Of a stretch of DNA of 64,000 nt, positions 4,833-14,117 are shown in pieces; within the stretch, counting starts at the first letter, position 1, and each line of letters starts with the position of its first letter. A program made the position numbers and the translations under genes. Source of the DNA: a virus; IMG/VR virus record IMGVR_UViG_3300023296_001674; one strand, written 5' to 3'. The notes under the pieces are model-generated. The model made no database searches and had not been told where the DNA came from. It saw only the letters and a program-made list of their open reading frames with translations.

Positions 4833-6809
4833 ATGCTAAAAATTAAAAATATTACAATAAAAAACTTCATGTCGGTGGGTTCTGTTACTAAATCCATTAC
4901 ACTTGATGAAAATGATTTAACACTGATTTTAGGTGATAACATCGATCAAGGGTCAGATGGAAGTAGAAACGGTGTTGGAAAGTCTGTTATAGTGGATGCA
5001 TTATCGTATGCATTATATAATGCGCCAGTTCGTAGAATATCATTACCAAAACTTATTAACAAAATTAATGACAAAAATATGATTGTTACGGTTGATTTTG
5101 AAAGAGATGACCAACAATACAGAATAGAACGTGGTAAAAAACCAGAAATATTCAAATTTTTTGTTAATGGTATAGATATTGAAAAACCAATCGACAAAAA
5201 AGATAAAGCGGAAGGCGAGAAAAAGAATACACAAGTGGAAATAGTGAAAATCTTTGGTATGTCGCACTTATTATTCAAGCATATTCTTGCATTGTATAGC
5301 AAAACTATTCCATTCATAGATGAAGGATCAGCAGTTCAACGAACAATTATCGAAGAATTATTGGGTATAACGCAATTAAGTGAAAAAGCGGCTATTTTAA
5401 GTAGCAACATGAAAGATACAAAAACTGAAATAGACCGTGAAGAATTTAGACATAAACTTGTAAATGATTCAAATATACAAATACAACAAAACATCAATCA
5501 ATTTACAATCAAATCAACCGGATGGGATACTACCCATGCAGAAAGTTTAGCTAAATTTGAAAAAAATCTAGAAAAAATGCTTGAAATTGATATAGATGTA
5601 GAAATTCAAAAACATCTTGATAATGAAGAACGACAAAATAAAATCAAAACTATAACTGAATCCAATCGTGATAAACAATTGGTTATAGATGAACAAAATC
5701 GTGATATACAAAAAAAGCATGATGACAATAAACGCGAACAAACCGATCTACATAGCCAAATGACGCGTGACTATAACGAAGTTGTGGGTATATTATCAAC
5801 GACTGAAAAGACGCTTGTTGATATTACATCCTCTGAAAAAACACTTATATCTAATAATGAGCATCTTGTAAAACATGCATGTCCAGAATGTGGTCAAGAT
5901 ATACATGACGACAAACACGATGATATGGTTAAGAAAAACGAAAACGAAATCGAACTTATATCATCTAAAAAAGACGTATGTGTAAATGATATAACTGCGA
6001 TAAAATCGATTATAGTAGAAAAAGAAACATTAGTTCGAGAACAATTGGCATTAATTGATGGCATAACTGCGCCAGTTCTAATGGAAAACGACGAGATGGA
6101 ACCGGTGCCGGTATTAGAACGACCTAACTTAAATTATGATACAATACACGAAGCATATGAACATAAAACTAATTTTGATAATTTGGTGACCACATATGAA
6201 AAAGAAGTAACCAATGAAAATCCATATATTGAACAAATCCAAACTATAACTGATAGCATTAAAGAAATCGATTACGAAATGATTAATGAATTGGTTAATT
6301 TATATAATCATCAAGATTTTCTATTAAAATTGCTAACTCGCAAAGATTCTAATATAAGAATACAGATAATAGAACAAAATTTGACATTCTTGAATAGTCG
6401 GCTTGATCATTATTGCAAAGAACTTGGTTTACCACATCAAGTATATTTCGGCGGAGACTTGAATGTTGATATTATAAAAACTGGTAATTCATATGATGCT
6501 GGTAATTTATCTGGTGGTGAAGTAACCAGATTGGTGTTGGCTTTCAGTTTTGCGTTCAGAGATGTACACGAAGCTTTAAATTTTCCAGTAAATATTATGT
6601 TCGTGGATGAATTAATAGATTCTGGAATGGATTCAAAAGGTGCGGAACTGGCATTGCATATTTTAAAAAATATATCAAGAAATAATAATAAAAATATATA
6701 CTTGATAAGCCATCGTGAAGATTTTATACCACGTGTATCCAATGTTCTTATGGTTACTTTCAACAATAATTTCACTGATTATAATTACGAAATAGACGTT
6801 CAGCCTTAA
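4833..6809 (+). CDS. Recombination ATPase, gp46/Rad50/SbcC-like
   Basis: KNFMS, Walker A NGVGKS, coiled coil with CPEC zinc hook, LSGGE signature, Walker B FVDE, ISH. Confidence 0.93.
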   Translation: MLKIKNITIKNFMSVGSVTKSITLDENDLTLILGDNIDQGSDGSRNGVGKSVIVDALSYALYNAPVRRISLPKLINKINDKNMIVTVDFERDDQQYRIERGKKPEIFKFFVNGIDIEKPIDKKDKAEGEKKNTQVEIVKIFGMSHLLFKHILALYSKTIPFIDEGSAVQRTIIEELLGITQLSEKAAILSSNMKDTKTEIDREEFRHKLVNDSNIQIQQNINQFTIKSTGWDTTHAESLAKFEKNLEKMLEIDIDVEIQKHLDNEERQNKIKTITESNRDKQLVIDEQNRDIQKKHDDNKREQTDLHSQMTRDYNEVVGILSTTEKTLVDITSSEKTLISNNEHLVKHACPECGQDIHDDKHDDMVKKNENEIELISSKKDVCVNDITAIKSIIVEKETLVREQLALIDGITAPVLMENDEMEPVPVLERPNLNYDTIHEAYEHKTNFDNLVTTYEKEVTNENPYIEQIQTITDSIKEIDYEMINELVNLYNHQDFLLKLLTRKDSNIRIQIIEQNLTFLNSRLDHYCKELGLPHQVYFGGDLNVDIIKTGNSYDAGNLSGGEVTRLVLAFSFAFRDVHEALNFPVNIMFVDELIDSGMDSKGAELALHILKNISRNNNKNIYLISHREDFIPRVSNVLMVTFNNNFTDYNYEIDVQP

Positions 6810-6837: not shown

Positions 6838-7242
6838 ATGGTAAGTGGTAGAAAATCAACAAAAGAAGAAATTATAATTTTATTCGAAAGTATACATGGA
6901 AACAAATATGATTATTCAAAAATTGATTATATAGGATCACATAATAAAATAGAAATTATTTGTAAAAAACATGGTTCATTTTTACAAAGCCCTAATAATC
7001 ATTCACATGGTAGCGGATGTCCAACCTGTGGGGCGACTAAAACTTTTGATAATTTTTTAAAAGATGCTAGAAATAAACACGGTAATAAGTATGACTATTC
7101 TAAAGTTGTATATATCAATGCACACACAAAAGTGGAAATAATATGCCCAAAACATGGATCATTTTTTCAAATACCAAATAGTCATATAAGATATGATTGT
7201 ATCAAATGCGGTCATGATAAAAATAGAAAAAATGATAAATAG
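6838..7242 (+). CDS. Zn-binding repeat protein (HGxKYDYS/CxxHG repeats), probable truncated homing-endonuclease remnant
   Basis: Two HGNKYDYSK...IIC(K/P)KHGSFxQxPxxH...CxxC repeats; no nuclease domain follows. Confidence 0.65.
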   Translation: MVSGRKSTKEEIIILFESIHGNKYDYSKIDYIGSHNKIEIICKKHGSFLQSPNNHSHGSGCPTCGATKTFDNFLKDARNKHGNKYDYSKVVYINAHTKVEIICPKHGSFFQIPNSHIRYDCIKCGHDKNRKNDK

Positions 7243-7272: not shown

Positions 7273-8130
7273 ATGTCTGATAACATATATTATGTCTATG
7301 CATTAATAGACCCAAGAAACAATAAACCATTTTATATCGGTAAAGGGAAAGAAAAAAGATGTTTCACGCATCTATCTGAAAATAAAGAACGCACCGATAA
7401 TATATATAAATGGAACACTATTCAAAAAATATATAAATTGGGGTTAGAACCAACTATTAAATTTTTTGAACGTGATATAAGCGAAAATGATGCTTATGAT
7501 ATCGAGGAAGAATTAATTAAACATTATGGACGGAAAAGATTTGATAAAAATGGAATTTTAACAAATTTATGTTTGGGTGCTCGACCTCCAGTTAACAATA
7601 GAGGATGTGTGGCGATATCTGGTTTATCATTTGATGAATATTATGGAAAAGAAAAAGCAGATAAAATAAGAAAGAAAATGAGTGATAGCGTAAAAGGTGA
7701 GAAAAACAGATTTTATGGAAAAACACATACAATAACAAATAAATTAAAATTCGCAACGAATGCAAGCAAACAATGGAAAGGAGTGTCAAAAACAGAAAGT
7801 CATTTAAAAAATTTAAAAAAAACTTATACACCAAAACGCCGAGAAAAATTACGTCAAAATCGCATCATAATGAATAAAAAATTAAACACTCCTGAAATGA
7901 TAGATAAATTACGATTGCGCAATATTAACCATGGTCGTGAAAAAACCAAACAAACAATTATCAACAATTTAATATTTTATCAAAATACAATCAATGATTT
8001 AAATAATGGATTAACCCCGAAAGATATAAAACATAAAAATAATTTTTCACATTCTGTATATTCTAAAATCTGGATGATAAATAAAAATATAACCTATTAT
8101 AATGATTTAATAGATGAAATAAATGGATGA
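7273..8130 (+). CDS. GIY-YIG homing endonuclease with NUMOD3-like DNA-binding region
   Basis: YYVYALIDPRNNKPFYIGKG...R...E...LTN; KMSDSVKGEKNRFYGKTH. Confidence 0.85.
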   Translation: MSDNIYYVYALIDPRNNKPFYIGKGKEKRCFTHLSENKERTDNIYKWNTIQKIYKLGLEPTIKFFERDISENDAYDIEEELIKHYGRKRFDKNGILTNLCLGARPPVNNRGCVAISGLSFDEYYGKEKADKIRKKMSDSVKGEKNRFYGKTHTITNKLKFATNASKQWKGVSKTESHLKNLKKTYTPKRREKLRQNRIIMNKKLNTPEMIDKLRLRNINHGREKTKQTIINNLIFYQNTINDLNNGLTPKDIKHKNNFSHSVYSKIWMINKNITYYNDLIDEING

Positions 8131-8135
8131 AATAA

Positions 8136-8750
8136 ATGGCTGGAAGTAAATCTGCAAGATATGGAAAGAATTTTGAGTATGAGGTGCGTGATCTATTACG
8201 TGATGCAACCGGAATTACATCTTTTGAACGAACGCCACAATCGGGCGCATGGATTGGAAAATCCAATATATATAAAGCAAAAACTGCTCGTGCTGATATG
8301 GTTGACATAATGGCTGGCGATATTGTAACTCCTAAAGGATGGAGATGGGTGATAGAAAATAAAAATCATGAAGACATAAGTGTCCATCAACTATATTTCG
8401 GCGAAGAATGTAAACAAATAGACGAATTCTTAGGACAAATATGCGATGATGCCATAACTACCAATAAAGAACCGCTATTAATATTTAAATTAAGGAAGAA
8501 ACCATATTCATTTAAGAAAAAATTTACAGATTTATTAAAATCAGCAAAAATACCAACACCTAAAGTAAATTCAATAACAACTGGTATCATGGTAGCCGAA
8601 ATAGCCGAACATTGTGAGGATATATCAAAAATAAACCATATATTCTATACAAAAAAATTAGAAGATGGAACTGAACAATCATGGAGATTTTTCGATTTTG
8701 CTACATGGTTAACGGTAATAAAAGATAGACAATTCAAAGAACAAAAATAA
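8136..8750 (+). CDS. Holliday junction resolvase (PD-(D/E)XK, Hjc-like)
   Basis: GKNFEYEV, RTPQSGAW, GDIVTP...IENK motif. Confidence 0.75.
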   Translation: MAGSKSARYGKNFEYEVRDLLRDATGITSFERTPQSGAWIGKSNIYKAKTARADMVDIMAGDIVTPKGWRWVIENKNHEDISVHQLYFGEECKQIDEFLGQICDDAITTNKEPLLIFKLRKKPYSFKKKFTDLLKSAKIPTPKVNSITTGIMVAEIAEHCEDISKINHIFYTKKLEDGTEQSWRFFDFATWLTVIKDRQFKEQK

Positions 8751-8752
8751 TA

Positions 8753-8781
8753 TTGACAAGTATTACAATATTATATATTAT
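8753..8781 (+). promoter_or_regulatory. Sigma70-type promoter for the 8806 ORF and possibly the downstream non-coding element
   Basis: TTGACA-17-TATTAT. Confidence 0.7.
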
Positions 8782-8805
8782 AAACAAAATTAACAAGGTC
8801 ATTAA

Positions 8806-9666
8806 ATGTCACCACAACCAAAATATAATCACTTAAAAGAAATGTCAAGCCGTGGCATTGATAGAAAGCAACAAAAACAAAAAAACTATGCAAACCATAG
8901 AGATATTCTACCAACACCGCCGCAGAAAAATGCATTAAAAAGTTTATTTGTGGAAGAAATGAAATTTTATAACAATTTCATTAAATTAATGCAACCGAGA
9001 TTAAAGACATCACCATCATTTTATGAAAATATAGGTGAAAGACAAAAATTGTTATTTGTTAAATTGGCGCAGATTGGTTTTAATGTGCGAGATATAACAA
9101 ATAGAAAAAGCAAAAACGTTGTATTACCTAAATCATTAGAACAATATCGCGATATATTATTTGGTATAACCGGTGATAAAGAAGTGGGATTAAATGAAAC
9201 ACTTGCGGTATTCTACGAAATATGTAAACATCGGGCCATTGTGTTATCAGACACCCGAAAAAATATGGCATATGAATTTTTAAATTTTTATATCAAACAA
9301 ACTAGATCGCATGATAATATGTACACACTTGAAGAAGTTGATAAAATGCAAAAACGGCATATACAATTAGCTAAATCGCAAGTAACGATGTCATTGGTTC
9401 GTACCGCAACTGAATTCGGAGATGAAACTCACACTGAGATAAAAATCCCACAGTTGAAAACACCATTGATCATGGATGCAGATTATAATGACTTACAATC
9501 ATGGAATATCATGATTATACATAAAGACCCATCGCAACTCGATTTAGGAAATACAAACCTTAATTGGGAAGTTGATTTTAGACAAACAGAAGACAAATAC
9601 TTACTCAAATACGTAGAAACGCCTAACCCAATTGCTAAGATGAATAGCAGATTTATAAAGAAATAA
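8806..9666 (+). CDS. Putative TnpB-derived (WED/REC-only, RuvC-less) nucleic-acid-binding protein
   Basis: RDILPTPPQKNALKSLF...FYNNFI resembles the TnpB N-terminus; EIKIPQLK...WNIMIIHKD...WEVDF resembles TnpB WED strands; no RuvC DxG or Zn finger. By-eye match only. Confidence 0.5.
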   Translation: MSPQPKYNHLKEMSSRGIDRKQQKQKNYANHRDILPTPPQKNALKSLFVEEMKFYNNFIKLMQPRLKTSPSFYENIGERQKLLFVKLAQIGFNVRDITNRKSKNVVLPKSLEQYRDILFGITGDKEVGLNETLAVFYEICKHRAIVLSDTRKNMAYEFLNFYIKQTRSHDNMYTLEEVDKMQKRHIQLAKSQVTMSLVRTATEFGDETHTEIKIPQLKTPLIMDADYNDLQSWNIMIIHKDPSQLDLGNTNLNWEVDFRQTEDKYLLKYVETPNPIAKMNSRFIKK

Positions 9667-9764
9667 TTAACTAACACATATACAAATACATATACAAACA
9701 TCATAGATGAACAATAATCTAATACATATACTAACACAGAACCCTTACACATACATGCTATAAT

Positions 9765-10245
9765 AAACTACCGACGGGATATAGACCGTGGTTATGAATC
9801 CTGATGTATGAGGATGATCTGGAATAGAATGACTGATGGTGATGATAATCAAGACGCCATGATGTGTTATGAAGCAATGAAACGCACGCACTCTCCCAAT
9901 GGAGCAGCTACCAGCCAGAATAAACAAAGAGGGGCTTTGACTGATGGTTAAAGTAGAACAAGAAGGATGCGCTGTCTGAGCTATTGACATCATCCAGCTT
10001 ATATCAATACGTTCAGGTCATTTATCGGCGTGATATAAGTACCGAATCCAACAGGACTATGGGAACTAAAGATGGTAAAGGGATTCCGCCATGCGCTTTA
10101 TGCGTTTCCAGTGAATGACTAGAAGCTCACTTATACTATGTGCAAACAACTTATAAATGATTAGACTAAATCCTTCCATTATAACTCTTTTCTAAGTGTT
10201 ATAAAGGGGGGATAAAAGTCTAATTAACAGTGCAATATAAGAATT
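9765..10245 (+). ncRNA. Candidate large structured non-coding RNA (unassigned family; strand inferred)
   Basis: No credible ORF, higher GC than flanks; stems ggatg/catcc (9965-9995), gcttatatca/tgatataagt (9997-10040), gaatcc/ggattc (10044-10086), long hairpin 10160-10224; loop 10016-10024 complementary to 10112-10120. Confidence 0.5.
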
Positions 10246-10416
10246 GAACTACGTTCAACTAAGTGTAACATAGCTTATTATTGTAGACCTATCATAATAT
10301 ACCATAATAATGATAAGAACATAATGTTAAAGATGTAAAGGCTTTATGAATGAACGTAGTGAAATGAATAAAGACGAACATCAGAAAGACGTAGTCTTTC
10401 TCTAAACATAAGTAAA

Positions 10417-10635
10417 TTATATTATAGGAAGTCCTGTCTTTTCTGTTGTCTCAATATTACTTTTTATTTTCTTGGTAATTGTTTCTCTGTGTGATGCGGT
10501 AAGTCGCCATGCTTGATCCCATGATATCGATCCTCTCATGTACCAACATATGTCCGTCACTTCTTTTTCTAAGGCTCTTGCTTCAAATGAAAGATCGATC
10601 ATAAAATCGCGTATTTCATCTGGAGACGAATTCAA
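10417..10635 (-). CDS. Baseplate hub/tail assembly chaperone, gp51-like; probably the -1 frameshift extension of the upstream gene
   Basis: ICWYMRGSISWDQAW motif; TTG start without clear SD; in the -1 frame after T TTT TTC. Confidence 0.6.
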   Translation of the reverse strand: MNSSPDEIRDFMIDLSFEARALEKEVTDICWYMRGSISWDQAWRLTASHRETITKKIKSNIETTEKTGLPII

Positions 10636-11480
10636 GAGCTTTGTTCGAAAAAATGCGATGGATCGAAGTTAACTGATGTTTTCCATTCATGTTGACAATT
10701 ATCACAATCAATTTCCATTTCTTTTGGAATGCCTACTTCATTAAGTTTTTTGATGGCTTCTTCTATTTGTTTTGTATCGTTTCTACTTGTTTTACTTAAA
10801 AACTCGCTTATGAAATCTTGATTGTCTGTAACTAACTTGCCTTCTCTATGAACACTGGTAATACTCAATGATAGCAATTCCATTGTTAAATCTACTGCTT
10901 TTTTATAACTACCTGCTGCTTTTGCTGCTTTTTCTTCATCGGATAAATCTTCAGACATTAACATTTGTAAGAATTTTCCTTCATTAAATGCCAATAATGC
11001 AGCCTTAACAGATGATGTATAAGTATATGGTTTTATTTTTATAACTAAACCATTTTCTAATTTAACTTGTGCATTCGGTTCTAATTTGTCTGCATTAGAT
11101 AGCAACCATGAAATATCTAAACCGAATTCTTTTTCTGTTTGACATTCTGGACATTCTGATGAGTAATCAATTTGGATGCCATAAGTGGCTTGTCGTATAG
11201 CCAATAATAATACTTCAATGTCATTCATTGGTAAATCTCGAACATTTGTAATACCGGGTGCGCAACTTTGTATAACTCTTGCGACTGATTCACCGTTAAG
11301 TAATGCATCAGGGCTTTTAAATAATAATTCATCTGCCGTAGTCATTGGATATACTTCTATTTCGCCATCTACCGATGTGATGATATCACCCTTTTCGCTA
11401 TAAAAACCACATGATGGCAGGGGTACATATATAGGAGTTCCTCTAAAAAATTCAGATAGTGGATTTTGTTCATTAACCAT
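10632..11480 (-). CDS. Baseplate hub assembly protein, T4 gp26-like
   Basis: LPSCG, PMTTADE, DIEVLLLAIR..TYG, CPEC and CDNC Zn motifs, C-terminal DPSHFF. Confidence 0.8.
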   Translation of the reverse strand: MVNEQNPLSEFFRGTPIYVPLPSCGFYSEKGDIITSVDGEIEVYPMTTADELLFKSPDALLNGESVARVIQSCAPGITNVRDLPMNDIEVLLLAIRQATYGIQIDYSSECPECQTEKEFGLDISWLLSNADKLEPNAQVKLENGLVIKIKPYTYTSSVKAALLAFNEGKFLQMLMSEDLSDEEKAAKAAGSYKKAVDLTMELLSLSITSVHREGKLVTDNQDFISEFLSKTSRNDTKQIEEAIKKLNEVGIPKEMEIDCDNCQHEWKTSVNFDPSHFFEQSS

Positions 11481-11582
11481 GGATTTTATTCCTCAAATAA
11501 ATAATAATGTAATAGTTTTGGGATTTAGTCAAAATACTTAACCAAAACTATTTATATAACTATTTATAACAGGTTTTAACAC

Positions 11583-14117
11583 ATGGCAACAGATAATCCA
11601 TTATTAGGCGGCGGCGATGATTCTTTTAACGATTGGGCTTCAGAAACTACTCAAAAAGAATTAAAAAAAATTCTTGAAGGTAAACTTAAAAATTACGACG
11701 CTAAGAAAATTGAAGAGTTATTAAAGAAGATCGAACTGAATACTCGTGCACTTAAAGGTAAAGGCGCGAGTGGTACTGGTGGTGCTAGTGGAATTGATTT
11801 CACTAAGGTAGTTAAGAATATAAATTTATCAGGCGGTTCTAGTGCTTCGGGTGGTGCTGGTCCATCTATTGCTAAAATAGTAGAAGATGCTACCAATTCT
11901 CCTTCACGAACAGGTGGTGCTGGCGGTGGCGGTGGCCCAATTATAAACAATGATGAAATAAAAAACGCAAAAGAAGAAGAAACTGAAGCAGTTAAAAAAT
12001 CTACTGGAGGTTTTTGGGATTTATCCAAATCTGTAAGTGCGTCCACAATAGGATTGATTAGTTTTACTGCTGTAGCCGGTGCATTGGGTGCATATATAGG
12101 AAACTCAATTGATGGTTATAGAGAACTTATTAATGCAGGTAGCAATTTTAATAGTTCATTGTTAGAAATGAGAAAAGCATCAGCAGATGCTGGCATGGGG
12201 TTTGACACTTTTGTTAAGGTATTAACAAAAAACAGTCAAGTTGTTAAAATGGTTGGCACAGGAGAATTTTTATCATTACAAAAAAGAATTCGACGCGTGG
12301 GTGATGATTTTGGGCAGTTTGGATTAACAGTTGAAGGAACCAGTGATTTTCTATCTGATTACTTAGAAACAAATATTCGTTTGGGTAATAGGCAGAAAAT
12401 AGATGAGACGTCAAGGGCGATAGGGTTTAGATCATATATGAATGAATTGACATCATTATCGAAAGCTACTGGTATACAACGTGAAGAATTGGCTAAAAAT
12501 GCCAAAGGTGTTGCAGATAACTCTAATATTCGCACAGCGATGAATAGAATGTCTAAATCAGAACGTGAAGAATTTAGTAAGACAATGGAAACTATGGGTT
12601 TAAAAATGGCAGCATTTGGTGATCCTATGAAAGAATTGATGGCTGATGCAGTTGGATCATTTATGTCTACTGGTAATATAGGTTTATCAGATTTGGGTAA
12701 AATCGCGGCAGTTGCCAGCGGTGAAACCGCCAATGCGATGACGTCTATGGTGAAAAGAATACAAGGTGGCGGCGATGATGCAAATTTGGCATTAGCAGAC
12801 TTAGCGAAATTAATGAGAGGAACCGATTTTCTTAATGCAGTAGGTGCAATGGAAGTGGCTAATAATTCAGCGGCTCTAGCAGTTAGTGCAGCCGCAGGAA
12901 AATGGATGCATAGTTCAGACACACAAGCTTCCGCTATACTTGACGCAACGCGAATGACGAGAGAACAAACTGATGCGATAGCAAGAAAAGAAGCCATCGA
13001 GTCGGCTGGTTCAAAGGCGCTATTAAACGTTCAATCCAATATGGGTAAAGCGTTTGGAACAATGCAATTTGCTATATTAAATGGTCTCACGCCTGCTATA
13101 ACAGGCGCTGGTGTTATATTTTCTGATATGATGGATGTTATCATGGGCGCATTTACTAAAGATCGAATGGATAGTATTGTATCAACGTTGGGTGATGCGT
13201 TTAAAACAGTTCAGAGTTGGGGTGATAAATTCGCATTATGGATAGGTGAAGGTGGTATTGAACGTAGTATTAAAAATATAATAGGATTTACGCAGTCTTT
13301 GGGTGAATCGATGATGTTTTTGGCTGATAATATAGATGTTATAATTGCTGGTACAGCCACTCTTGCGGTGATATTTGCTGGATTAAAGATAATCGGTATA
13401 GCTCTTGCACTCGGCGGCGCGGCGATAGCAGGCCCAGTGGCGCTAGTTGTTGGTGGTGTTATCGCGTTGGGTGGTGCTATTGCATTAGTGGTTGCATATT
13501 CAGAAGAATTAGGTGGATTTATTTCAAGATTTGGTGAGAATATGTGGAATAGTGTTAGACTTGGACTAACAACGTGGCCGATTGGTAGTTTATTAATGGA
13601 TTCGATTAATAGCATGTTTGATACTAATTTTGATTTTGGTGGATATGTAGAAAGTGTATTATATAAATTAACGGGTGGCATTTTTGGTAAAGACGCACCT
13701 AAGCCAGGATTTTCATTTGGCGATGATGTTGGTAGTGTCGCCGTTGGTGTTAATGATAATAAATCACCTGAAGATATAAAGAAAGATCGCGTAACTATAG
13801 CAAGAGAACGATCATTTAAAGAGATAAAAGCTATTCCTGATTTAAACCATAATCAATTATCAAGAGCAAGGCGCGGAACGAATTTATCTACTGATGATTT
13901 GAAGGCTGATATGGCTGATGATGGAGTACTTACACCACAAAATAGAAAAATAATAGAAGAGAAAGCTAATAGTGGTGAAAAGTATGCCAAGTTGTTATTA
14001 GAGCAAATGACTAGAGCGAATGATTTAGCAGAGCAAGCGCAACAAGCACGCGAAGAACAAATAAAACAGACAAAAAAACGTCAACCTAGCTTTGGAATGG
14101 CTAGTTCTGGAACATAA
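11583..14117 (+). CDS. Tape-measure-like tail protein
   Basis: 844 aa, Ala/Gly-rich helical with hydrophobic segments; divergent from gp26/51-like chaperones and before the portal. Confidence 0.65.
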   Translation: MATDNPLLGGGDDSFNDWASETTQKELKKILEGKLKNYDAKKIEELLKKIELNTRALKGKGASGTGGASGIDFTKVVKNINLSGGSSASGGAGPSIAKIVEDATNSPSRTGGAGGGGGPIINNDEIKNAKEEETEAVKKSTGGFWDLSKSVSASTIGLISFTAVAGALGAYIGNSIDGYRELINAGSNFNSSLLEMRKASADAGMGFDTFVKVLTKNSQVVKMVGTGEFLSLQKRIRRVGDDFGQFGLTVEGTSDFLSDYLETNIRLGNRQKIDETSRAIGFRSYMNELTSLSKATGIQREELAKNAKGVADNSNIRTAMNRMSKSEREEFSKTMETMGLKMAAFGDPMKELMADAVGSFMSTGNIGLSDLGKIAAVASGETANAMTSMVKRIQGGGDDANLALADLAKLMRGTDFLNAVGAMEVANNSAALAVSAAAGKWMHSSDTQASAILDATRMTREQTDAIARKEAIESAGSKALLNVQSNMGKAFGTMQFAILNGLTPAITGAGVIFSDMMDVIMGAFTKDRMDSIVSTLGDAFKTVQSWGDKFALWIGEGGIERSIKNIIGFTQSLGESMMFLADNIDVIIAGTATLAVIFAGLKIIGIALALGGAAIAGPVALVVGGVIALGGAIALVVAYSEELGGFISRFGENMWNSVRLGLTTWPIGSLLMDSINSMFDTNFDFGGYVESVLYKLTGGIFGKDAPKPGFSFGDDVGSVAVGVNDNKSPEDIKKDRVTIARERSFKEIKAIPDLNHNQLSRARRGTNLSTDDLKADMADDGVLTPQNRKIIEEKANSGEKYAKLLLEQMTRANDLAEQAQQAREEQIKQTKKRQPSFGMASSGT

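Follow-up and report, generated by a model that had tools for sequence, protein, structure and literature searches.

What does a TnpB-like protein do once its entire nuclease half is gone, and does it act together with the large structured RNA encoded beside it? The question is raised by a locus in the window, meaning the whole 64,000-nucleotide stretch of viral DNA analysed here, which belongs to a 194-kb record covering roughly half the genome of a giant T4-like phage of lytic type. The 286-aa protein, here termed half-TnpB, is encoded in a block with gp47, gp46 and a Holliday-junction resolvase, and the preliminary description of this DNA, which placed the gene as a fixture between the resolvase and baseplate genes, holds for all relatives seen, where the flanking genes are the resolvase and a gp26-type baseplate gene. 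In the closest relative, P0002 (66% identity), the gene is followed by a gap of 703 bp that resembles the 750 bases without a conserved ORF at 9667-10416. The same description was right that no transposase or insertion-sequence ends are visible: the gene is single-copy in the 194-kb record, which yielded no transposase, no second gene copy and no relic of a RuvC or TNB domain, and a repeat search of 8000-11600 found neither repeat ends around the gene nor array-like direct repeats of the CRISPR kind. The promoter that it assigned to the ORF is present, is the best-scoring site of 8600-10800 and is the putative promoter of the half-TnpB gene, and a terminator scan across the same interval found none, again as described. 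Features of the locus are collected in Table 1.

Table 1. Predicted and conserved features of the half-TnpB locus
Feature	Position	Strand	Basis or remark
Sigma-70-type promoter TTGACA-17-TATTAT of half-TnpB gene (predicted)	8753..8781	+	11/12 consensus positions
RuvC-less TnpB-like protein gene, 286 aa	8806..9666	+	ORF and predicted fold
Protein layout (model): basic N-terminal tail 1-30; WED strand 31-34; REC helices 38-167			
Protein layout (model), C-terminal half: WED strands 185-259; helix 275-283			
A/C-rich spacer, three copies of ACATATAC-type word	9666..9765	+	repeat family D1
Possible extended -10 promoter TGCTATAAT for RNA	9756-9764	+	read from sequence; putative role
RNA 5' domain, seven helices	9766..9966	+	alignment A4, RNAalifold, covariation
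RNA central domain, long-range helix GGUCAUUUAU / GUGAAUGACU	9967..10140	+	shared with L015, L016
RNA 3' region, variable around conserved GGGGGGAUAAAAGUCUAAUUAAC	10141..10341	+	string common to L015, L016
Conserved terminal hairpin	10342..10373	+	alignment A6, 6 loci, pairs change on both sides
11-nt linker ACGAACAUCAG, varies among lineages	10374..10384	+	sole guide-like candidate
Terminator-like hairpin AAAGAC-GUA-GUCUUU	10385..10399	+	covaries in 6/6 aligned loci

The predicted fold and the lost nuclease half

Modelling by AF2 gave a confident structure for the 286-aa protein (pLDDT 90.6, pTM 0.84), in which a WED strand, REC helices and further WED strands follow one another in the order seen in TnpB. 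The top 32 matches to the model found by VIA-align are all TnpB, Cas12 or Fanzor proteins (Z 10.3 to 3.9, rmsd 3.1-3.8 A over 149-162 residues), the next match falling at 3.5, and Foldseek assigns probabilities of 0.91-0.99, the highest to 8ex9_A. An earlier AF2 model built from 9 sequences (pLDDT 69) returned the same match list more weakly, and the ESM Atlas model of the protein was poor and gave no lead. The extent of the structural match is exactly WED+REC of TnpB (residues 6-174); the alignments go no further than residue 174 of TnpB and residue 208 of Cas12f, and the protein itself terminates, in the model, 25 residues past the last WED strand. The predicted fold is thus that of the WED+REC lobe of TnpB and Cas12f, ending where RuvC would begin. 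Much of this had been read from the letters beforehand: the motif likened to the start of TnpB falls on the predicted first WED strand and first REC helix (31-68), the second block taken for WED strands falls on strands 185-259 of the model, the stop ahead of RuvC-I agrees with the end of the structural alignments, and the proposed AlphaFold and Foldseek comparison with TnpB and Cas12f returned a match over WED+REC.

The nuclease is absent from the protein. There is no RuvC domain with its D-E-D triad and no zinc-finger/TNB domain, the basic protein (pI 9.45) having a single cysteine, and neither PF01385 (RuvC, E <= 1) nor PF07282 (zinc-finger/TNB), a model that does match control genomes, has a match in six frames of the 194-kb record. 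The relatives of half-TnpB form a family known from metagenomes, with at least 163 clusters (E <= 0.001) and a typical length of ~220-345 aa; none of the 150 members listed of these clusters has room for RuvC, their lengths being 64-345 aa. Searches of Pfam, PHROGs and NCBIfam gave no match for the protein or 80 relatives, and comparisons with 50,697 GenBank phages gave none for three family members (tblastn) or for the locus (blastn). The gene is under purifying selection (dN/dS 0.11-0.15).

At the level of sequence, the sole match of the family profile is to Fanzor1 (E 4.3e-4), at the N-terminal strand-helix motif. The likeness of fold might be put down to convergence, in a family not descended from TnpB, as could fit an identity to the solved structures of only 5-13%, Foldseek E-values of ~1e-2, and the failure of the Pfam TnpB N-terminal model (PF12323) to match the protein, 80 family members or six frames of the record. 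Against such an origin, the match spans a discontinuous two-domain topology in which REC is inserted between WED strands, matches 1-32 all come from one superfamily with a cliff beneath them, and the independent profile match to Fanzor1 sits on the equivalent N-terminal motif; we regard convergence as very remote. Half-TnpB is a new derivative of TnpB that has no RuvC, and it is probably paired with a large RNA.

A large RNA 3' of the gene

Starting 100 nt 3' of the half-TnpB gene, on the + strand, is a conserved folded RNA of ~640 nt (9766-10402). The preliminary description had pointed to ~750 bp of structured non-coding sequence, and of this the non-coding part stands, as stop-free stretches in the homologous regions vary in length and frame and the gaps in the RNA alignment are not multiples of three. 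The structured part stands on other grounds than folding energy, since the MFE z-score of the region is ~0 on both strands and gives no sign of structure; the RNA is called structured because it covaries among relatives. The interval described there ended at 10245, and the RNA runs on to ~10402. The G+C content is 42-48% at 9750-10150 against ~28% around it, and A/C-rich words like those of the spacer come after the stop codon in relatives too. In L022 an ORF was called on the minus strand of the RNA region; it is not conserved and was rejected.

The RNA is real and lies on the + strand. In alignment A4 (7 loci) 94.6% of cells are paired against 34-44% for slid partners, 12 pairs are changed on both sides against 0-3, and ~28 G-U cells occur on the + strand against ~4 A-C cells; covariance model (CM) R1 scores 129 bits at 9766..9966. 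This 5' domain includes a long-range helix, ACUGG/CCAGU, and a hairpin whose invariant loop CUGAUGG comes after UAUAAACAAAGAGGGGC. In the central domain, RNAalifold on 3 sequences shows both partners changed in 11 of 64 pairs, among them two compensatory pairs of the long-range helix, and the 3' region differs in length among lineages. Two tandem-G.A motifs occur in the RNA, and the terminal hairpin combines a GUA/GNRA loop and a 2-bp stem with neighbouring tandem G.A pairs, an arrangement that, judged by its sequence, may be kink-turn-like. The hairpin that follows the linker is likely the 3' end of the RNA; it is G+C-richer in relatives and here too weak for the terminator scan.

No family in Rfam 15, which covers group I/II introns, RNase P, tmRNA, HEARO, GOLLD, ROOL, OLE and others, matched the region at E <= 1 or the RNA of five relatives at E <= 5, and ARAGORN found no tRNA or tmRNA. 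Resemblances noticed by eye to strings of hammerhead, group I, RNase P and tmRNA molecules were set aside, since relatives do not conserve them.

A variable 3' guide matching phage or host DNA had been suggested as something to look for, and no guide-like match was found in the phage record. Neither the 194-kb record nor the loci of relatives yielded a guide target at better than chance, the 11-nt linker has no significant match in either, and complementarity of the RNA elsewhere in the record amounts to 14 nt or less, no more than chance.

Distribution of the protein and the RNA

The RNA is found 3' of the gene in the window and in L015, L016/17, L006, L009, L011, L022 and L023, and is probably present in L043-45. 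For L043 and L046, homology is probable, being drawn from short collinear matches (E 0.04-0.3 each) and a by-eye reading of the sequence, and nhmmer did not reach either locus. The RNA is kept beside the gene, on the same strand and in the same order, across proteins that are 38-44% identical, and the lower limit of identity would be ~27% should the diverged element of L043 be this RNA as well. In the protein phylogeny, loci with the RNA cover the crown together with L043, an RNA-less clade is nested among them, and two changes suffice for the pattern of presence and absence. The adjacency of gene and RNA is ancient.

The linkage expected between gene and element thus holds in most lineages and fails in some, since the protein occurs without the RNA at the site in seven closely related L001-type loci, which form the nested clade, and in two deep branches, L018-20 and L048. 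Selection on the protein in the L001-type clade is unchanged (dN/dS 0.11-0.14), so that no adjacent RNA copy is needed for the protein to work, unless the RNA has been relocated elsewhere in these genomes, an alternative that their short contigs have no power to show. Because RNA-less loci carry cassettes of small ORFs or other genes at the same site, the position 3' of the half-TnpB gene behaves as a hotspot; in L048 a type-1 RNase H gene follows directly. Clade B has a strong terminator between gene and RNA. In L016 the 5' domain of the RNA has been replaced and the protein still falls in the same group; entire domains of the RNA can be swapped from lineage to lineage.

No instance of the RNA away from the gene was found by the narrow searches made. 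CM R1 matched solely the seven loci used to build it (the L043 hairpin reached E 2.8, the L004 record nothing), and a motif search with three conserved strings of the RNA across IMG/VR and GTDB genomes gave chance matches or none.

A proposed non-cutting RNA-protein particle and its alternatives

The reading that we prefer, at a probability of about one half, is that the gene derives from a TnpB/Cas12f-type ancestor, has been domesticated and is immobile; its product would retain the recognition lobe (WED + REC) alone, the entire half with the RuvC nuclease and zinc finger having been lost, and the gene lies next to a same-strand gene for the ~640-nt structured RNA with its own terminator-like 3' hairpin. 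In the model that we infer, together with the pairing of protein and RNA, any guide function and the biological role, the basic protein would bind this RNA as the WED/REC lobe of TnpB holds omega-RNA, and the pair, which probably forms an RNA-protein particle, would bind nucleic acid without cutting it and serve the replication/recombination block (gp47, gp46, Holliday-junction resolvase, and RNase H in one relative). Counter to this model, the RNA is some 4 times the length of an omega-RNA and lies clear of the gene's 3' end, and the two may be adjacent simply through synteny inherited at the boundary of a module.

Cas12 descends from TnpB, and to our knowledge the known domesticated forms of TnpB (Cas12k, Cas12m, TldR, dCas12f-sigmaE) all retain the RuvC lobe, even dead. 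The TnpB and TldR systems known so far encode their partner RNA beside the protein gene (PMC10097598; bioRxiv 10.1101/2023.11.30.569447). The ISDra2 TnpB (PDB 8H1J, 8EXA, 8EX9; PMC10097598) shares with half-TnpB the discontinuous arrangement of its WED and REC domains (Z 9.6 over 160 residues, TnpB 6-174), and 8EX9, in which only the WED+REC lobe is resolved, is the structure that reaches a Foldseek probability of 0.99 with the half-TnpB model. In IS200/IS605 elements, as here, the RNA gene adjoins the protein gene on the same strand. TnpB differs in having RuvC and the zinc finger (TNB), both missing from half-TnpB, and the IS200/IS605 protein is mobile, whereas half-TnpB has no transposase, no element ends, a single copy and fixed synteny; omega-RNA measures 150-250 nt as compared with ~640 nt here, where there is no gene overlap and no recognisable guide.

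The TldR proteins (bioRxiv 10.1101/2023.11.30.569447; 10.64898/2026.09.22.753285) are likewise immobile, nuclease-less derivatives of TnpB, some of them phage-borne, and have an adjoining guide RNA; many are truncated C-terminally, with part of RuvC and the zinc finger gone, and the guides of some are as short as 9-11 nt. They nevertheless preserve the remaining TnpB fold together with the interface that binds RNA, whereas half-TnpB has lost the entire nuclease lobe, and they are encoded next to fliC in prophages or within opp loci, unlike half-TnpB in its lytic-type giant T4-like phage, whose RNA is far larger and for which no promoter target was found within the 194-kb record. The best structural matches are Cas12f and dCas12f-sigmaE (PDB 8DZJ, 9N9C; bioRxiv 10.1101/2025.06.10.658880), which reach Z 10.3 and 10.0 across the WED/REC lobe, and the sgRNA of Cas12f is also large relative to the size of its protein; unlike these systems, half-TnpB lacks a RuvC lobe, a linked sigma factor and any nearby CRISPR array or repeat. 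Among the Fanzors of eukaryotes and giant viruses (PDB 9CF0, 9B0L; PMC10432273, PMC11832414), Fanzor2 gives Z 9.7 and Fanzor1 is the protein matched by the family profile, but Fanzors are active RuvC nucleases carried in transposons and half-TnpB has no RuvC.

The two genes may instead be independent neighbours, the protein a stand-alone DNA- or RNA-binding factor for replication/recombination or early transcription and the RNA an unrelated non-coding RNA (a regulator, a decoy against host defence, or a scaffold) in the same convergent intergenic hotspot. Persistence of the protein without the RNA in the L001-type loci, L018-20 and L048, under the same purifying selection in the first of these, points that way, as do the other cassettes occupying the site, the clade B terminator, and the 5' domain swap in L016 that left the protein group unchanged. 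What makes separate neighbours a rather unlikely account is the strand and order kept at such low protein identity, whichever status is given to L043, an RNA not encountered apart from the gene in the narrow searches made, and the sole known role of a WED/REC lobe, which is to hold guide RNA and target.

The RNA might also be the active partner, as a ribozyme or an architectural molecule, with the protein a folding or stabilising cofactor that has no guide function. Protein cofactors of catalytic RNAs are familiar from the RNase P protein and intron maturases. The size of the RNA, its several domains and long-range helices, the two tandem-G.A motifs, the invariant single strands UAUAAACAAAGAGGGGC and loop CUGAUGG, which suggest tertiary or catalytic roles, and the negative guide search are all consistent with such a machine; it is improbable given that the RNA resembles no ribozyme or large-RNA family in Rfam 15 and that whole domains swap between lineages, which would be unusual in a catalytic core. 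T4 primes leading-strand synthesis from R-loops at oriF and oriG, and a particle that opens DNA at a phage origin, where the RNA or an RNA-DNA hybrid would prime the leading strand, would suit the neighbouring gp47/gp46 and junction resolvase genes and the RNase H gene of L048, and also the REC lobe of TnpB, which holds an RNA-DNA duplex (PMC10097598). Yet the locus has no origin mark and the complementarity of its RNA to the record is at chance level, and an origin module is decidedly improbable.

If the particle of the preferred reading exists, it has no described counterpart in the literature searched. A natural family reduced to WED+REC, under selection in a core block of giant phages beside a large RNA, would set a new lower limit to the architecture of these proteins and would suggest that most of the work falls to the RNA; were it RNA-guided, it would be a programmable binder of 286 residues, and failing that, the large structured ~640-nt RNA of these phages is in itself new and has no known relative. 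Most large RNAs of this kind have proved to be ribozymes or RNP scaffolds. Tentatively, one may go further and see in the pair a new class of RNA-protein machine, core to giant T4-like phages, in which a bare recognition lobe is joined to a modular 640-nt RNA that replaces the lost nuclease lobe and directs the particle to nucleic-acid targets, its exchangeable domains being the programmable part. Half-TnpB would then be the smallest natural TnpB derivative, and its tasks might include opening DNA for replication or recombination and silencing host or phage genes.

The recognition lobe and the missing nuclease half

The half-TnpB gene, present as a single copy, encodes a basic protein of 286 residues (P0001; pI 9.45) with a disordered, lysine/arginine-rich N-terminus and one cysteine. 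The gene lies downstream of a promoter-like site, has no detected terminator behind it and is followed by a non-coding stretch, all as in the preliminary description; the site ranks first among the promoter-like sites of the region. Searches of Pfam, PHROGs and NCBIfam returned no match for the protein, and no relatives are detectable in GenBank phages. There are ten close metagenomic relatives (35-66% identity), of which eight have lengths of 276-293 aa and one is a fragment of 225 aa. A profile search recovered 163 cluster representatives at E <= 0.001, and the apparently full-length ones are all 220-345 aa, a size at which a RuvC domain would not fit in any family member. Positions that are invariant, or nearly so, include E51, N56, Q165, K183, H185, Q187, W233, W254 and Y265, and pairwise dN/dS values of 0.11-0.15 in two clades indicate that the gene is under purifying selection.

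An AlphaFold2 model built from an 80-sequence alignment (mean pLDDT 90.6, pTM 0.84) predicts a strand at residues 31-34, helices at 38-167, strands at 185-259 and a final helix at 275-283. When this model was compared exhaustively with 48,161 PDB representatives, matches 1 to 32 were all TnpB, Cas12 or Fanzor chains, with Z falling from 10.3 to 3.9, and the first unrelated match came directly afterwards at Z 3.5. Among these matches are AsCas12f (8DZJ, Z 10.3, target residues 3-208), dCas12f (9N9C, Z 10.0, residues 9-212), Fanzor2 (9B0L, Z 9.7, residues 134-307) and ISDra2 TnpB (8H1J, Z 9.6, residues 6-174); the aligned target portion is always the N-terminal WED+REC recognition lobe, and residues 28-262 of the model are covered. 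Foldseek likewise placed TnpB, Cas12 and Fanzor at the top; for 8EX9, an ISDra2 TnpB structure in which only the WED+REC lobe is resolved, the probability was 0.99 and the target-normalised TM-score 0.56.

Independently of structure, the family profile matches a PDB sequence, that of Parasitella Fanzor1 (E 4.3e-4), on the N-terminal strand-helix motif that had been picked out by eye. The family escapes Pfam's model of the TnpB N-terminus, so the sequence link to TnpB exists but is thin. The protein has no nuclease half, and the downstream DNA holds no decayed remnant of one: neither PF01385 nor PF07282 matches any of the six frames across the record, whereas both match control genomes. We estimate at roughly 90% the probability that half-TnpB descends from the TnpB/Cas12f lineage and has lost RuvC. 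The earlier reading of a TnpB-like WED/REC protein that lacks RuvC is thus supported by the model, the PDB and Foldseek comparisons and the Fanzor1 match.

Extent and strand of the large RNA

Between 9750 and 10150 the G+C content rises from about 28% to 42-48%, and no conserved reading frame is found in 9667-10416. The gap after the half-TnpB gene measures 700-940 bp in several lineages, and the window sequence 9766-10402 can be aligned to the gaps of L015, L016/L017, L006, L009, L011, L022 and L023 (the last ending at a contig end), although protein identity to the window is only 44% for L015, 39% for L016/L017 and 38% for L023. The structured non-coding element proposed to follow the gene is therefore present, but the end originally placed at 10245 was too short, the real one lying at about 10402.

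In the 5' domain (9766-9966), RNAalifold predicts seven helices from seven loci. Of the alignment cells, 94.6% are paired, a share that drops to 34-44% on sliding the partners by 1-3 columns, and twelve pairs have changed on both sides, as against 0-3 in the slid controls; none of 500 shuffles reached either observed value. The central domain (9967-10140) contains a long-range helix common to L015 and L016, with two compensatory pairs. A protein-coding origin of the conservation at 9766-10402 is ruled out, since gaps in the alignment span 1, 2 and 5 columns and no stop-free frame is conserved. Moreover, the 5' domain has about 28 G-U cells that would read as A-C mismatches on the opposite strand, with only about four of the reverse kind, an asymmetry which indicates that the selected molecule is a plus-strand RNA rather than a DNA hairpin or a minus-strand transcript.

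Folding energy is uninformative here: the MFE z-score is close to 0 on both strands, including at 9740-10160 where covariation supports structure, and MFE screening would have missed the RNA, whose structure shows in the comparison with relatives. Rfam 15 gave no family match for the window or five relatives, and ARAGORN found nothing at the locus. The string TGCTATAAT at 9756-9764, just ahead of the first helix, is a possible extended -10 element, to judge by its sequence. Directly after the stop codon (9666-9736) the A/C-rich word ACATATACAAAYA occurs in three copies, and at the same site relatives have short A/C-rich repeats of other kinds (ACTAATA, TCAAACAC).

Positions of features in the window and in two RNA-less relatives
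Feature	Position	Strand	Remarks
gp46-like ATPase	4833-6809
Likely homing-endonuclease gene	6838-7242		134 aa, two treble-clef zinc repeats
Likely homing-endonuclease gene	7273-8130		285 aa, GIY-YIG + NUMOD3
PDDEXK_15/RusA-like junction resolvase	8136-8750
Promoter-like TTGACA-17-TATTAT	8753-8781		ahead of half-TnpB ORF
Half-TnpB ORF	8806-9666	+
Conserved hairpin, tandem G.A pairs	10342-10373		3' end of RNA
11-nt linker, differing between lineages	10374-10384		3' end of RNA
Covarying terminator-like hairpin	10385-10399		3' end of RNA
72-aa gene	10417-10635	-	directly upstream of gp26-type gene; kept in all relatives, 64-75 aa
gp26-type baseplate protein	10632-11480	-
Long glycine/alanine-rich gene			after gp26-type gene
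RNA-less clade downstream cassette	L001:4594-4870; L002:2102-2380		same place in L004, L007, L008, L010, L012

Linkage of protein and RNA

The partner RNA of TnpB and TldR proteins is encoded next to the protein gene (PMC10097598; bioRxiv 10.1101/2023.11.30.569447). The strand and order of gene and RNA are identical in all eight to nine RNA-bearing lineages, and narrow motif scans found no copies of the RNA away from the gene. On a maximum-likelihood tree of 20 proteins, RNA-bearing loci comprise the deep branch L043 and the whole crown, with an RNA-less group of seven close relatives nested inside, and two state changes suffice, as against about six with shuffled labels; the homology of the L043 element is based on three short collinear matches, and that of L046 on a reading of the sequence only. 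The expected co-occurrence holds in most lineages but is incomplete, because the nested clade (L001, L002, L004, L007, L008, L010 and L012), L018-20 and L048 keep the gene and lack the RNA at this site. Constraint on the protein is unchanged in the nested clade, and in clade B a strong terminator separates gene and RNA. Taken together, a functional pairing of the protein with the large RNA is slightly favoured.

The RNA appears to be built of exchangeable modules: the 5' domain of L016/L017 (L016:5040-5210) is unrelated to window 9766-9966, the central domain is shared, and the latter differs between clades, which points to a modular, fast-changing molecule. Downstream of the half-TnpB gene, the RNA-less clade has a terminator and a conserved hairpin, then a consensus promoter and, ahead of a 97-aa ORF, a leader some 115 nt long with eight CCAG words. 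CCAGCCAG also occurs in the best-conserved string of the large RNA, and CCAG is a candidate binding word for the half-TnpB protein.

The suggestion of a variable 3' guide matching phage DNA found no support in the 194-kb record, about half of the genome: the longest match of RNA segments to the rest of the record was 14 nt, which is chance level, and the 11-nt linker had no significant match there or in the relatives' loci. This is a weak negative, since the searched data covered about half of the phage genome and none of the host's; in some TldRs the guide is only 9-11 nt long (bioRxiv 10.1101/2023.11.30.569447), and the search could not recognise targets that short.

Genome setting and comparison with known systems

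The 194-kb IMG/VR record, estimated to be about half complete, carries T4-type core genes. An identical protein to P0001 is listed in a protein collection on a contig of 570,750 bases, and the phage may therefore be far larger than the record. Upstream of the half-TnpB gene, every relative with enough flanking DNA has gp47/gp46 and a junction resolvase, of the PDDEXK_15 type in most and Endonuclease VII in L043, and downstream there is always a convergent small gene and the gp26-type baseplate gene; in relatives the portal gene follows the long glycine/alanine-rich gene. No transposase, element ends or CRISPR-like repeats were found near the gene, and with a single copy and fixed synteny the claimed lack of transposase and IS ends holds. 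The half-TnpB element is immobile and old. Both likely homing-endonuclease genes fall between the gp46-like gene and the resolvase, and the pair looks like a recent insertion, because in the closest relative the resolvase directly follows gp46. At two relatives' loci, a type-1 RNase H gene (PF00075; L048:2253-2651) overlaps the half-TnpB stop codon in L048, a distant relative without the RNA gap, and L016 has, upstream of its resolvase gene (L016:2338-2422, -), a weak tRNA-Sec-like match of 34 bits (E 0.003), below the gathering score of 47.

All exapted TnpB/Cas12 forms in the literature searched, among them Cas12k, Cas12m, sigma-associated dCas12f and TldR, keep the RuvC lobe at least partly (PMC10691335; 10.1101/2023.11.30.569447; 10.1101/2025.06.10.658880). 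In TldR the C-terminal RuvC/zinc-finger segment can go while the rest of the fold and the RNA interface stay, whereas in half-TnpB the whole RuvC lobe is absent. The full-text literature searched describes neither a WED+REC-only protein nor this large RNA. Because the family lacks the nuclease, the zinc finger and the mobility of TnpB, it is a derivative of TnpB rather than a member. In its replication/recombination block, this uncultured giant T4-like phage carries a TnpB-lineage variant that has no nuclease and, next to it, a large structured RNA, both of them new.
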